DNA from: Ignicoccus hospitalis KIN4/I
Lineage (GTDB): Archaea; Thermoproteota; Thermoprotei_A; Sulfolobales; Ignicoccaceae
Assembly: GCF_000017945.1 (NCBI RefSeq)
Contig: NC_009776.1
Coordinates: 1,020,001 to 1,052,000 of the forward strand
Direction: 5' to 3'
Length of the DNA stretch: 32,000 nucleotides
Part shown: piece by piece, positions 1 through 10,645 of the stretch
Layout: each line of letters starts with the position of its first letter
How positions within the stretch are numbered: the stretch's first letter is position 1
Made by a program: the position numbers and the translations under genes
The notes under the pieces: model-generated
Databases searched by the model: none
What the model saw: only the letters and a program-made list of their open reading frames with translations
Told to the model about the DNA's origin: nothing

Positions 1-150
1 CAAATGGTAATGAATATGGGAGATGATAACTTGATCTGTGGGGGCTCGGGGCTGAGGGTCCTCGGGCTCCAGCTCCTCTTGGCTTGTGTCTTGAGCCGCT
101 CCCGGTGTAAGCTGTGGGCGGGCCACGAGGGAGGGGGACCTTGTCTGGAC

Positions 151-357
151 TTGAGGGTCCCCGACCCCTTCGAGAGCAAGCTGGAGGCCCGGGCCTACGC
201 GGCGTTGGCCTTGAAGGGCGAGGCGAGTTTGGACGAGCTGAGCAAGGAACTCGGAGTTAACAAGAAGACCTTGTGGAGCGCCCTTGAGAGGTTGGAGAAA
301 AACGGGTTGGTGGAAAAGCCTAAGAGGGGAATCTACCGGGCGAAGCCCCTCAGTTGA
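151..357 (+). CDS. small TrmB/MarR-like winged helix-turn-helix DNA-binding protein (longest ORF 4..357; start uncertain)
   Basis: The C-terminal ~68 aa (LEARAYAALALKGEASLDELSKELGVNKKTLWSALERLEKNGLVEKPKRGIYRA) read as a helix-turn-helix plus wing. The first ~49 codons of ORF 4..357 are Cys/Gly/Leu-rich and not protein-like. An in-frame TTG at 151 lies about 13 nt after GGAGGGGG (131-138). Confidence 0.55.
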   Translation: MRVPDPFESKLEARAYAALALKGEASLDELSKELGVNKKTLWSALERLEKNGLVEKPKRGIYRAKPLS

Positions 358-6396: not shown

Positions 6397-7725
6397 TTAC
6401 TTCTTCATCTTTATCTCTACTTTGGCGGGCTTGACGTCGGTCACTATGCCTATGCCGACGGTCTTGCCCATGTCCCTCATGGCGAACCTGCCCAGCGGCT
6501 GGAACTCTTGGAACTTCTCTATCACCATCGGCTTGAGCGGCTTGAACACCACCACAGCGGCGTCGCCCGGCTTGAGGAAGCTCGGGTTCTCCTCGATCAC
6601 CTTACCGGTCCTCGGGTCGATCTTCTGCTTGATCTCGATAATCCTGCTAGCCACGCTGGCGGTGTGGGCGTGGATCACCGGGGTGTAGCCCACCGCTATG
6701 GCGCTGGGGTGCCAGATGACGAACACCCTGGCGGTGAACTGGTCCGCAACGGTGGGCGGGTTCTCCGGGTGGCCGGCCACGTCTCCCCTCTTTATGTCGT
6801 TCTTGCTCACGCCCCTTACGTTGAAGCCTATGTTGTCGCCGGGCATGGCTTGCTCGATCTTCTCGTGGTGCATCTCTATGCTCCTTACTTCTCCTCCAAC
6901 TCCGGGCGGCATGAACACTACCTTGTCGCCTACCTTGAGTACGCCGGTCTCCACCCTCCCTACCGGGACGGTGCCCACGCCGGTGATGCTGTAGACGTCT
7001 TGGATGGGTATCCTAAGCGGGAGCTTGGCCCACTTCTCCACGCTTGGCGGCTTGAGGTTGTCCAAGGCCTCCACCAAGGTGGGGCCCTTGTACCACGGCA
7101 TGTTCTCGCTCCTCTTGATGATGTTGTCGCCGGTCCAAGCGCTAACGGGCACGAACGGTATCTCGTCCACCTTGAAGCCGAGGCCCTTCATGAACTTCTT
7201 CAGGGTCTCCACTATCTGCTTGTACCTCTTCTCGCTCCAAGGCGGCTCGGTGGCGTCCATCTTGTTGACGGCCACTATTATCTGGTCGATACCCATGGTC
7301 TTGGCTAGGAGTATGTGTTCCCTAGTCTGGCCCTCCGCGCTCATGCCGGCCTCGAACTCGCCCGGCCTGGCGCTGACCACCAAGATGGCCGCGTCGGCCT
7401 GGCTGGCGCCGGTGATCATGTTCTTAATGAAGTCCCTGTGGCCGGGGGCGTCGATGATGGTGAAGTAGTACTTCGGAGTCTCGAACTTCATGAAGGTCAG
7501 GTCGATGGTAACGCCCCTCTCACGCTCCTCCTTGAGCTTGTCCAGCAGCCAAGCGTACTTGAAGCTCTCCTTGCCCCTCTTCTTCGCTTCCTCCTCCAAC
7601 ATCTTCAGCGTCTTCTCGTCGACGAAGCCCAGCTCGTACAACAGGTGGCCCACTAGGGTGCTCTTGCCGTGGTCTACGTGGCCGATCACTATCAAGTTCA
7701 TGTGGGGCTTCTCTTTCTTGCTCAT
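6397..7725 (-). CDS. tuf: translation elongation factor 1-alpha (aEF-1A)
   Basis: Full-length GTPase with GHVDHGKST (G1), DAPGHRDF (G3) and NKMD (G4), plus typical archaeal domains II and III. The SD-like GGAGGG sits 8 nt upstream of the ATG. Confidence 0.97.
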
Positions 7726-7859: not shown

Positions 7860-8576
7860 TCAATCGAAGAGCTCCAGGGTAACGTTTCCGAAGCCCTCCC
7901 TCCTCCGGAAGCCCACGCCCAAGAGCGCCCCCTTCCTAAGTATCTCCAAGACCCAGCCCGGGAGCTCTTCCACCACGTGGAACAGAGCCACCCCCGTCAG
8001 CCCGGGCCTCCACTTACCCCTGTACAAGTACCAAACCTTACCGACGCTGTGGAGGATGGAGTGGTCTTCAACAAATATTTCGTCCAGCTTTAGGAGCGCC
8101 TTGGGGTTGCTAACGTAGGGGGAGAAGAGATAAGAGGGGAGGGGAAGGAAGCGGAGGTTGAACGGGGCCTTTCCCTTCTTAATTATCACCGGCCCGTTGA
8201 ACTTTATTATTAATTTTGAACCGTAACCCACGTCAGTTATTATCTCTTCTACCCCTTCTATCCTTATTTCGTAGACCTTATTACCTAAGATGACCTTGAC
8301 CTCGCTTGTAATTGTCTTAGGGAAGTTCAAAACGGTCATCTCGAAGTATCCCTTCTCGGGAAGCTTGACGGGTAAGAGGGACTTGGGGGCCTCTACCTTA
8401 CAGAACGAGCAGTCCACCATAACTTTCGGGTAAATTGTCTTCCCGTCGATGCTGTAGAGGGGAGAGACGTGTAAGATGTTGGACGCTATTTCCTCAGCTA
8501 TCAATTTCGTGAGGAGCCCGCTGTACTCGAAGAGTTCCCCTCCCGACGTTTCCAAATAAACCCTCAGTTTGAACAT
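7860..8576 (-). CDS. cas6: Cas6-like RAMP protein (putative CRISPR-associated endoribonuclease), stand-alone
   Basis: The size is ~240 aa. The C-terminal glycine-rich loop GALLGVGFRRREGFGNV matches the Cas6 G.G.....GFG hallmark. The N-terminal beta-alpha start is MFKLRVYLE...LHVSPLYS (compare ..lH...pFtfS). The ATG at 8576 is preceded by AAGGAG; the longer TTG start at 8594 is less likely. Confidence 0.6.
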   Translation of the reverse strand: MFKLRVYLETSGGELFEYSGLLTKLIAEEIASNILHVSPLYSIDGKTIYPKVMVDCSFCKVEAPKSLLPVKLPEKGYFEMTVLNFPKTITSEVKVILGNKVYEIRIEGVEEIITDVGYGSKLIIKFNGPVIIKKGKAPFNLRFLPLPSYLFSPYVSNPKALLKLDEIFVEDHSILHSVGKVWYLYRGKWRPGLTGVALFHVVEELPGWVLEILRKGALLGVGFRRREGFGNVTLELFD

Positions 8577-8610
8577 GACGCTCCTTCCGACCAATAAGAA
8601 CTATCCAAAA

Positions 8611-8621
8611 GCATTTTAGAA
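8611..8621 (-). promoter_or_regulatory. TATA-box candidate for the cas6-like gene
   Basis: The minus strand reads TTCTAAAATGC about 35-45 nt upstream of ATG 8576. Confidence 0.35.
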
Positions 8622-8681
8622 TTGAAGGTACTCGCCAGAAGACCAAAAGAAATATTAACACCCTTTTTAAACCCAGGCTCG

Positions 8682-8687
8682 AAAAAA
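8682..8687 (-). terminator. oligo-T terminator candidate after dtdA
   Basis: The minus strand reads CCTTTTTTCG (T6) about 17 nt after the dtdA stop. Archaeal RNAP terminates at oligo-T tracts. Confidence 0.35.
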
Positions 8688-8703
8688 GGATAATTTCTGA
8701 ACT

Positions 8704-9441
8704 TCAAACCACGAGGACCTCTAGGCCGAGGTCCTCCAAAGCCTTGACGACCCTCAACCTGAGCTCGGACTTCAAGGACTTCTTCTCCACGTAGGCCCTT
8801 TCGGGCCTCTCGAAGCTCCTCTCCACCATCTGCCTCAACAAGTCCTCGTCCAAGTGGTCAAGGGCGTACTTAGGGGCAATGTGGCCGAAGCACGCCTCGC
8901 CCTCCAAGCACCTCTTTGTAGCCCTCTTGGAGTAGTGGGGGCCTCCAACCCAAACGGCCTTGGGCGCCTCGCAGCGGTGCTCCTCCCACGAGGCCACCGC
9001 CTTGGCCAAGACCTCGTGGTTCGCCGGGTCCTCCCAGTCCTCCTTCACGGAGCCTATCTCGGCGAAGACCAATGGCTTGTCGCTGGTGGGCCCGTGGTGG
9101 GTAGCCTCGTAAGTCACGTCGTAGCCCTCCCTCCGGAAGGCGTTCATTGCCCTCAACAAGGAGCAAGCGAGGGAGGGGTAGGCGACCCCGAGCCTCTTGG
9201 GCTCCCCTCCCAGCTTCGCCTCCCCGAAGTTGCCGGTGTGGTGGACTGTGAATGCCTTCACCCTCTTCTCGCTGGAATGTCTCGAAAGCACGATGAAGGC
9301 ATCGCCGGCGAGCGAGTTGAAGTCGAAGAAAGGTGGGTCCTCCGGCAGCTCCAAAGCCTTGATCCCGTATTCCCTCTCCAGAGCCTCGGCCGCCCCCTTA
9401 GCAGCGGGGTCCCCGGGGTAGTAAACCACTGTTACCTTCAA
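8704..9441 (-). CDS. dtdA: D-aminoacyl-tRNA deacylase, archaeal type (DTD2)
   Basis: The motifs SRHSSEKR..FTVHHTGNFG, YEATHHGPT, FAEIGSVKEDW and GGPHYSKRATKRCLEGEACFGHIAPKY match the DTD2/GEK1 family over its length. The start is TTG. Confidence 0.88.
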   Translation of the reverse strand: MKVTVVYYPGDPAAKGAAEALEREYGIKALELPEDPPFFDFNSLAGDAFIVLSRHSSEKRVKAFTVHHTGNFGEAKLGGEPKRLGVAYPSLACSLLRAMNAFRREGYDVTYEATHHGPTSDKPLVFAEIGSVKEDWEDPANHEVLAKAVASWEEHRCEAPKAVWVGGPHYSKRATKRCLEGEACFGHIAPKYALDHLDEDLLRQMVERSFERPERAYVEKKSLKSELRLRVVKALEDLGLEVLVV

Positions 9442-9632
9442 GGCTCGTCCAACAGGCCGGCCGCCTCGAGGGTCCTAAGAACCTTGAGGGCTAGGGAGCG
9501 CGACTTCAAGCGGATCAAGATCTTGTCGCCGACCCTCTCGACTAGGGCCTCTGGAGGTAAGAGGTCCTCGGCACCCTCCTTCGCTACTATTACGTAGTAT
9601 CCTTGGGGGTCCCTCTTCCCGAGGCCCTTCAA
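9438..9632 (-). CDS. hypothetical small protein (64 aa)
   Basis: Its stop overlaps the dtdA TTG start (CTTGA). The composition is protein-like (YYVIVAKEGAEDLLPPEALVERVGDKILIRLKSRSLALKVLRTLEAAGLL). No motif was recognised. Confidence 0.4.
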   Translation of the reverse strand: MKGLGKRDPQGYYVIVAKEGAEDLLPPEALVERVGDKILIRLKSRSLALKVLRTLEAAGLLDEP

Positions 9633-10207
9633 AGTACCCCGGGCCGGTTTGTCTTTCGTTCATTCTTGAAAGGTCCTTCATGGAGGTCGGTGAGAAAGGT
9701 CCCCGCCCGCGTCGTCTATCTTTGCATTATTCCTAGGCCTAGATTGTTAGGCTCCTCGACTCTCTTATAGAAAAAATCTTTTTCGGAGCCAGAATAATGG
9801 TATTTTTCTATCCTCTCTTGAGACTCCACCGAAGCCTTCCATATAAAGCTCCAAGGTCTTTCCCTTAAAAGAATTGCGTTCTACTGCGAGTTTACAATTC
9901 TCCACGTTTTTCCCTTTATTCGAGAAATTTTTCCTCTGCCCTTCCCTCCACGATCTTCAGCGTTCCCATGAAAAGATATAAGGGGGTTTGAGAGAGTGAA
10001 TAGTAATGGTGCGCTTTCGAATATAGGATGTTCCCATGTGGGCAAAGATGAAAAGGAAATGAGTAAAATACAAAGGTTTGGTGATTTGTAATGCTAATAG
10101 ACTGAAAAAGAAACAAGAAAAGCATCGAAGGAGTCATACTTTCCTATTCTATAGGGCAAAGGGATAGGAAGCTTGTGAACCGCAAAAGGGTTGGAGGTCG
10201 GGGACCC

Positions 10208-10406
10208 TCACCCGACCCGGAGCGGCATTACCTCCCTTACCCTCAAGGCCTTCTTTAACTTCTCCTCCATCCCGCCGGCGTCGGCCACGTAAGCGACGTC
10301 CCCCCTTTATGCCGACCCCTATGACCTTCTCGTCTTTTATTTCCATCTCGGGGATGATTATTTGTGCGCCGAGTCCCTCCAAGGTGACCCTGGCCGCGCC
10401 CTTCAA
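10208..10406 (-). pseudogene. small ORF interrupted by a frameshift at a G6 (plus-strand C6) run; function unknown
   Basis: The reading ...KGAARVTLEGLGAQIIIPEMEIKDEKVIGVGIKG runs into an Arg/Gly junk frame at 10300-10305. Removing one G continues it as DVAYVADAGGMEEKLKKALRVREVMPLRVG-stop (TGA at 10208-10210). The start (TTG 10406) is a guess. Confidence 0.3.
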
Positions 10407-10566
10407 GACCCTCCCGGGAGCACTGGCTTCAACCCCGTCGAACCGCCCGGCGCATCCGACAACAAGCTTTGAGGCATAGCCTCCAAGGCCAGCTCCCCGA
10501 GGGAGGAGGTCCTCCCAAGGCGCTCGGGAGCGGGAAGGTGTAAACTGCTCGTAGGCGGAGGGCCTT

Positions 10567-10645
10567 TGGTGCGGCGGCCGGGATTTGAACCCGGGATCAC
10601 CGGCTTGGGAGGCCGGCATCCTAGTCCAGGCTAGACGACCGCCGC
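10567..10645 (-). tRNA. tRNA-Gly (anticodon CCC), 3' CCA encoded
   Basis: The reverse complement is GCGGCGGTCGTCTAGCCTGGACTAGGATGCCGGCCTCCCAAGCCGGTGATCCCGGGTTCAAATCCCGGCCGCCGCACCA. It has a perfect 7-bp acceptor stem, a 5-bp anticodon stem CCGGC/GCCGG with loop CTCCCAA, a T arm CCGGG-TTCAAAT-CCCGG and no intron. Confidence 0.93.

Follow-up and report, generated by a model that had tools for sequence, protein, structure and literature searches.

A Cas6-like protein is encoded in Ignicoccus hospitalis KIN4/I by Igni_1151, a gene that lies between those for EF-1alpha and the D-aminoacyl-tRNA deacylase DtdA, and the question raised by this locus is whether a protein in such surroundings matures CRISPR RNA or has been put to another use. 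The genome is a single contig of 1,297,538 bp, and the window, which is the whole stretch of 32,000 nucleotides that was analysed, comprises its bases 1,020,001-1,052,000. In window coordinates, the gene and its neighbours are:

6397..7725, minus strand: EF-1alpha gene (Igni_1150), the downstream neighbour, an ORF whose product is 96.6% identical in relatives
7863..8576, minus strand: coding sequence of the cas6 paralog Igni_1151 (Iho_1151), 238 aa, stop codon at 7860-7862
8577..8703, minus strand: AT-rich spacer of 127 nt between dtdA and cas6, from the sequence
8704..9441, minus strand: dtdA (D-aminoacyl-tRNA deacylase, Igni_1152), from Pfam PF04414 (E 7.6e-70) and synteny in five lineages
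9438..9632, minus strand: ORF of 64 aa, the first gene of the trio, overlapping the start of dtdA by 4 nt

The 238-aa reading frame reported by the first-pass annotation is intact on the minus strand (7863-8576). It is uninterrupted and of full length, with an ATG at 8576 in both the sequence and the ORF list; an alternative TTG start at 8594, six codons upstream of the ATG, would give 244 aa and is less likely. The locus tag and the assignment to arCOG01440 are taken from PMC3149612, supplement 2, and a literature search found no Igni locus tags in the texts of papers. The protein is already labelled RAMP/Cas6 in arCOG, and its ortholog P0005 is named Cas6 by NCBI.

Membership of Igni_1151 in the crenarchaeal SsoCas6-like branch of Cas6 (arCOG01440) is secure, since it follows from the PADLOC profiles, a profile of the family itself, an AlphaFold2 model and its comparison by Foldseek and VIA-align. 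Nearly all of the protein is matched by the PADLOC Cas6 profiles PDLC01122 (E 5.4e-16) and PDLC01127 (E 7e-12). The profile search that had been proposed therefore gives a significant answer with PADLOC but not with the other models: Pfam PF10040 stays at E 0.016 and 16.4 bits, under its 25-bit cut-off, and TIGR01877 has no match at the locus. A search of NCBIfam with Igni_1151 gave no match either, and a PDB sequence search with Igni_1151 alone returned nothing relevant. Only 16 relatives turned up when 1.8 billion representatives were searched exhaustively with phmmer, and the profile made from them matches SsoCas6 (3ZFV, E 1.2e-6; 4ILL, E 1.7e-5) by way of the glycine-rich G-loop and the first part of the C-terminal domain.

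The AlphaFold2 model, built on the alignment of the relatives, has a pLDDT of 90.8 and a pTM of 0.87, and it superposes on Cas6 structures over its full length, so that the suggested structure prediction bears the assignment out. The best ~40 matches found by Foldseek in the PDB are all Cas6. VIA-align gives a Z-score of 18.2 and an rmsd of 2.8 Å against 3ZFV for 211 residues spanning 1-238, with Z 17.5 against 4ILM and Z 15.0 against 6FJW. The model contains two tandem RRM/ferredoxin-like (RAMP) domains, the N-terminal one with a single helix, as is also the case in SsoCas6 (PMC3652601). The glycine-rich loop claimed in the first-pass annotation, GVGFRRREGFGNV, is found at G220-V-G-F-R-R-R-E-G-F-G230 and aligns with the SsoCas6 loop GIGRSRGIGFG. 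G220, G222, R225, G228, F229 and G230 are invariant across the 16 relatives, and Igni_1151 keeps all the family-invariant residues. Profile, fold and G-loop thus uphold the identification as a Cas6-family RAMP.

The best structural match is SsoCas6-1 (Sso1437, 3ZFV; Sso2004, 4ILL/4ILM/4ILR), with Z 17-18 and an rmsd of 2.8-2.9 Å for ~210 residues. Both proteins consist of two RAMP domains, of which the N-terminal one lacks alpha2, and share the C-terminal G-x-G-x-x-R-x-x-G-F-G loop; both genes stand alone, and the repeats of both hosts are nearly unstructured (repeat A of I. hospitalis: -2.2 kcal/mol, z -0.14). S. solfataricus and I. hospitalis are further alike in having multiple Cas6 paralogs alongside effectors of types I-A and III-B. 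The differences are the low sequence identity of 14-17%, the length of 238 aa as opposed to ~290, and the active site, where the alpha1 lysine pair and the Lys51 equivalent of SsoCas6 are not conserved in the clade of Igni_1151.

SsoCas6 has no catalytic histidine and uses Lys25, Lys28, Lys51, Arg231 and Arg269; the K28A mutation lowers the rate >200-fold and K25A or K51A >10-fold, and Reeks et al. emphasize that the enzyme can do without any one of these residues, its active site being plastic (PMC3652601). In the alignment of the Igni_1151 family, a K-x-V-K motif in helix alpha1 is invariant in the nine non-orphan relatives, as is a Lys ahead of ‘P-x-H’. The five sequences of the clade linked to dtdA, to which Igni_1151 belongs, depart from this pattern: the first alpha1 Lys is replaced by Leu in all five, the second position varies (K/R/S/K/E, with Lys24 in I. 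hospitalis), and the third Lys is gone with a deletion of ~15 residues between alpha1 and beta2. The clade retains Arg225, the counterpart of Sso Arg269 in the profile alignment, as well as a basic residue at position 188. We take Lys25, Lys28, Lys51, Arg231 and Arg269 to correspond to Leu21, Lys24, no residue (deleted), Lys188 and Arg225, a mapping made from motif pattern and not from a residue-level superposition. For the three lysines the pattern is the basis because an N-terminal profile of the non-orphan relatives, searched against PDB sequences, did not reach SsoCas6. The lost or variable alpha1 lysines count against crRNA processing by this clade, and the turnover of Igni_1151 may be low, given the loss from helix alpha1 of basic residues that its relatives keep.

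The histidine noted earlier in NILHVSPLYS is present as His36 in beta2 and is conserved in 13 of the 16 relatives. It cannot be taken for the catalytic His of canonical Cas6 enzymes, since SsoCas6, which has no His near its active site, works without one, and in the other three relatives the position is occupied by Arg.

The first-pass annotation had seen neither CRISPR repeats nor other cas genes in the window, and this does not hold:

1..354, plus strand: 3' part of csa3/CasR (Igni_1142), from the PADLOC CasR/Csa3 profile
9804..9829, minus strand: single family A repeat without spacers, GTGGAGTCTCAAGAGAGGATAGAAAA, from the genome-wide repeat scan and the sequence
9830..10095, minus strand: complete CRISPR leader, conserved among leader units

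The PADLOC CasR/Csa3 profile matches the fragment in the window with E 1.8e-13 and the full gene with E 1.3e-18. This gene is the final one of the type I-A locus spanning genome positions 1,009,879-1,020,354, which is complete and consists of an array, csa1, cas1, cas2, cas4, cas3'' (HD), cas3', cas8a, cas5a, cas7a, a csa5-like gene of 148 aa and csa3; no cas6 was found within it. Between csa3 and Igni_1151 there are 7.5 kb with eight unrelated genes, and Igni_1151 is neither in nor adjacent to the type I-A operon. Because of this nearby locus, which lacks a cas6, and of the leader-repeat unit 1.2 kb upstream of the gene, the description of Igni_1151 as an orphan fails. A CRISPR-cas locus immediately outside the window had been named as the finding that would make it an ordinary locus-associated cas6, and this is largely the situation, with the locus ending 7.5 kb from the gene.

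The proposed search for arrays in the full genome located 14 repeat loci. The genome-wide scan assigns 13 of them to a 26-nt repeat (family A; transcribed strand GTGGAGTCTCAAGAGAGGATAGAAAG) and one array of 24 copies to a second repeat (family B), and the conserved leader occurs in 12 copies. Another array lies 5 kb past the end of the window. There are two Cmr modules in the genome, with Cmr RAMPs at 284, 405-408 and 928 kb, so that arrays and type I and III effectors, the context of a Cas6, are all at hand.

Over 251-300 nt, window positions 9805-10095 are 90-97% identical to the 11 other leader units, which adjoin real arrays; the last base of the lone repeat is A, not G, and a T-rich tract follows it. 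In the direction of transcription the unit points toward the small ORF, dtdA and cas6. It could be a collapsed array or the seed for a new one. The idea that it gives a crRNA-like RNA against a genomic target was dropped, since the 44 nt after the repeat match the genome only at chance level.

A parallel to this arrangement exists in S. solfataricus, which has five non-contiguous Cas6 paralogs serving type I-A, III-A and III-B complexes in trans and in which SsoCas6-3 (Sso1422) processes the adjacent ncRNA60, a lone CRISPR-repeat-like sequence (PMC4041471). SsoCas6-3 adjoins the gene of its repeat-like RNA, and in I. hospitalis, similarly, a lone repeat with its leader is 1.2 kb upstream of Igni_1151. 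A difference is that the 44 nt behind the I. hospitalis repeat match nothing of note in other parts of the genome.

The proposed search for other cas6 copies in the full genome found Igni_1070 and Igni_0636, which with Igni_1151 make three Cas6 genes in I. hospitalis. Igni_1070 (952,930-953,766) belongs to arCOG01440 as well and is 42% identical to Igni_1151 over residues 27-235; the two share the motifs H(V/I)(S/T)PL and VEDHSxLHSxGKVWY and the G-loop. It is the Cas6 of a decayed type I-D locus, lies between two arrays and beside cas1, and has orthologs in other Ignicoccus; unlike Igni_1151, it retains K-x-V-K and the 15-residue segment between alpha1 and beta2. Igni_0636 (genome 572,474-573,244, L025:6471-7244, minus strand, 257 aa, PF10040 E 3.4e-9) is like Igni_1151 a stand-alone gene among housekeeping genes, with a GMP synthase gene adjoining. 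It is very distant, was not found with P0001 as the query and has a tree branch of 2.9. A cas6 gene that stands alone is nothing unusual in Crenarchaeota (PMC3652601, PMC4041471), nor in Ignicoccus, where Igni_0636 is also outside any cas operon.

Intact orthologs of Igni_1151, with 52-54% identity, were found in an Ignicoccus MAG and in four metagenomic lineages. In every ortholog lineage, five in all, the order is the small ORF (62-64 aa), dtdA and cas6, while the outer flanks differ; EF-1alpha follows cas6 in all but one. The paralog is absent from two complete genomes of other Ignicoccus species, in one of which EF-1alpha and dtdA are adjacent and divergent. In the closest pair, dN/dS is 0.074 for cas6 at a dS of 0.97, 0.059 for dtdA and 0.086 for the small ORF. 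The low ratio of cas6, similar to those of its two partners, shows that the protein is kept under purifying selection.

The maximum-likelihood tree groups the five orthologs together with 99/99 support, on a long stem and apart from the Igni_1070-like clade. The sister of this dtdA-linked clade is P0007, a stand-alone metagenomic protein of 267 aa (L030:2060-2863), the gene of which lies between those of a SpoU methylase and an amino-acid kinase, with a TRM5/TYW2 gene adjoining. P0007 is likewise without the K-x-x-K motif.

Among the six Ignicoccus genomes compared, three of which are incomplete, family-A-type repeats are found in all six, Cas7a in G000, G001 and G003, and the Igni_1151-type paralog only in G000 and G003. 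Type I-A therefore does not appear to require this paralog, since G001 has type I-A without it, and this speaks against a role of Igni_1151 in crRNA processing. No cas genes were found within 8 kb of the orthologous cas6 genes in the relatives.

The relatives differ from I. hospitalis in the spacer between dtdA and cas6, which in the orthologs is only 54-74 nt long and has no T run, so that dtdA and cas6 are likely co-transcribed there. The upstream signals named in the first-pass annotation are all present ahead of Igni_1151 as sequence features: an SD-like GGAAGGAG at 8588-8581, five nt ahead of the ATG, TATA-like boxes at 8671-8664 and 8658-8650, and a T6 run at 8687-8682. The T6 run is a putative terminator and the TATA-like boxes a candidate promoter. 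Separate and possibly weak expression of Igni_1151 in I. hospitalis is plausible in view of the longer spacer with its T run, and agrees with the proteome described below. The EF-1alpha gene downstream has its own conserved promoter box, TTTTTAAG.

Igni_1151 has zero spectra in the shotgun proteome of I. hospitalis, both with and without N. equitans, which counts against a role in crRNA processing. The same data give 43/21 spectra for Igni_1070, 22/4 for Igni_0636, 32/11 for DtdA and 3297/2067 for EF-1alpha (PMC3149612, supplement 2). Effector proteins of type I-A were detected, its adaptation genes were not. Since it is expressed and present in five of the six Ignicoccus genomes, Igni_0636 may be the main Cas6 of the genus, and Igni_1151, being undetected, appears to be a minor paralog.

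We consider that Igni_1151 is, with a probability of about 0.6, a trans-acting, weakly or conditionally expressed stand-alone Cas6 for the family A repeats. Its position outside any cas operon and among housekeeping genes means that any action on crRNA must be in trans; this part of the earlier proposal of a trans-acting Cas6 serving distant arrays stands, while arrays and a cas locus are also nearby and not only distant. As is the case for other Cas6 proteins in hosts with type I-A and III-B systems, Igni_1151 would be a free protein that is not built into an effector complex. It would be made under its own AT-rich upstream region behind the T6 run, bind the largely unstructured 26-nt family A repeat in pre-crRNA and cleave that RNA, or hold it, 8 nt ahead of the 3' end of the repeat. 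The cut would leave the 5' handle AUAGAAAG for the neighbouring type I-A Cascade, the Cmr complexes or both. Substrate, cleavage position, client complexes and expression control are thus what we infer for the protein. It speaks against this reading that the two expressed paralogs could do all crRNA processing alone.

The departures in the active site raise the possibility, which we regard as rather unlikely, that Igni_1151 is a non-catalytic or regulatory protein, binding repeat RNA and cleaving it poorly or not at all, and acting as an RNA chaperone, as a competitor or in the control of crRNA supply. The alpha1 Lys and the Lys ahead of beta2, invariant in the relatives, are lost or variable in the dtdA-linked clade, while conservation extends to the G-loop Arg225 and C-terminal domain and the selection on cas6 shows that the protein is in use. 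Roles of this kind are on record: a type III-associated Cas6 of Thermus thermophilus reportedly represses type I-B, and non-catalytic homologs are said to exist. Regulatory roles of Cas6 are also reported in PMC12102369. Against this reading, I. hospitalis retains Lys24 (by pattern the equivalent of Lys28), His36 and Arg225, and the residues were mapped from the motif pattern and not by residue-level superposition; moreover, the plastic active site of SsoCas6 does without any single essential residue (Reeks et al., PMC3652601). Very unlikely, in our view, is a silent and redundant copy in I. hospitalis that is heading to loss, which would explain the missing peptides, the terminal branch of 0.68, the longest in the clade, and a dN ~2-fold that of dtdA as opposed to 1.0-1.65-fold in other pairs, as well as the T6 run and enlarged spacer that part the gene from the expressed dtdA. 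Such a copy would hardly be expected to have an intact, full-length ORF with every family-invariant residue retained and a plausible ribosome-binding site and start codon, and its absence from one shotgun proteome is weak evidence because the type I-A adaptation genes and many others also escaped detection.

The company of dtdA suggests a different departure, in which the Cas6 fold was exapted to a non-CRISPR RNA and the small ORF, dtdA and cas6 form a unit for housekeeping RNA, tRNA-related or other. Five lineages preserve the trio amid differing flanks on either side, the ortholog dtdA-cas6 spacers of 54-74 nt without T runs suggest an operon, the stand-alone sister P0007 lies beside SpoU methylase, amino-acid kinase and TRM5/TYW2 genes, and SsoCas6-3 also processes a non-CRISPR ncRNA (PMC4041471). 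All of the evidence, however, is gene order from a single subclade and amounts to effectively one evolutionary event; other Ignicoccus genomes lack such a cas6 and have the small ORF and dtdA in separate places, every one of these genomes contains family-A-type repeats, and there is no evident RNA target, all of which makes exaptation improbable. A broader version is nearly as doubtful, namely that the dtdA-linked clade and its stand-alone sister have together left crRNA processing, either for a housekeeping RNA (tRNA or a precursor) handled with the small ORF and DtdA, or to become a regulator that binds repeat RNA.

The result mainly corrects the record, in that Igni_1151 is a Cas6 in a CRISPR-rich genome and no solitary RAMP. 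With it, a third and divergent lineage of Cas6 is known from a small model genome with type I-A, type III-B and decayed type I-D systems, which makes I. hospitalis a compact case for asking how several Cas6 paralogs share out the work among repeat families and effector complexes. Of modest interest are the loss of the alpha1 lysines under continued purifying selection and the fixed place behind dtdA.

The small ORF at the head of the trio has no match in Pfam and belongs to no known family, and no indexed homologs were found outside the genus. Its orthologs lie upstream of dtdA in L016, L026, L027 and L028. Co-occurrence of the ORF with cas6 across the genus was considered and rejected, as the ORF is also present in G001, G002 and G004, in unrelated places. 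Its ancestral upstream neighbour is a tRNA gene:

10567..10645, minus strand: tRNA-Gly(CCC), from ARAGORN

In L016, a relative, a 98-nt intron-containing tRNA (6917-7014) is directly ahead of the small ORF; it was found by Rfam and missed by ARAGORN. In I. hospitalis, ~935 bp are inserted between the intron-less tRNA-Gly(CCC) and the small ORF, and this insert holds the leader-repeat unit. The ~470 bp between leader and tRNA-Gly (window 10096-10566) are unique and apparently non-coding.

In another Ignicoccus species, G001, a 14-repeat array with the related repeat GTAGAGTCCCAATAGGGAGTGGAAAG (L018:8349-9246) is found 640 bp from dtdA, with its transcription leading away from that gene. In two species, it appears, arrays have come to lie near dtdA. 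An ancestral unit of array, dtdA and cas6 was considered and dropped in favour of coincidence or a hotspot, since in G001 the orientation differs and no cas6 is there.

As to N. equitans, Cas6 was described in an RNA-seq paper as not easily identified (PMC3491384); NEQ001 is tabled as ‘Cas6 family’, arCOG04342, with 11 spectra (PMC3149612, supplement 2).
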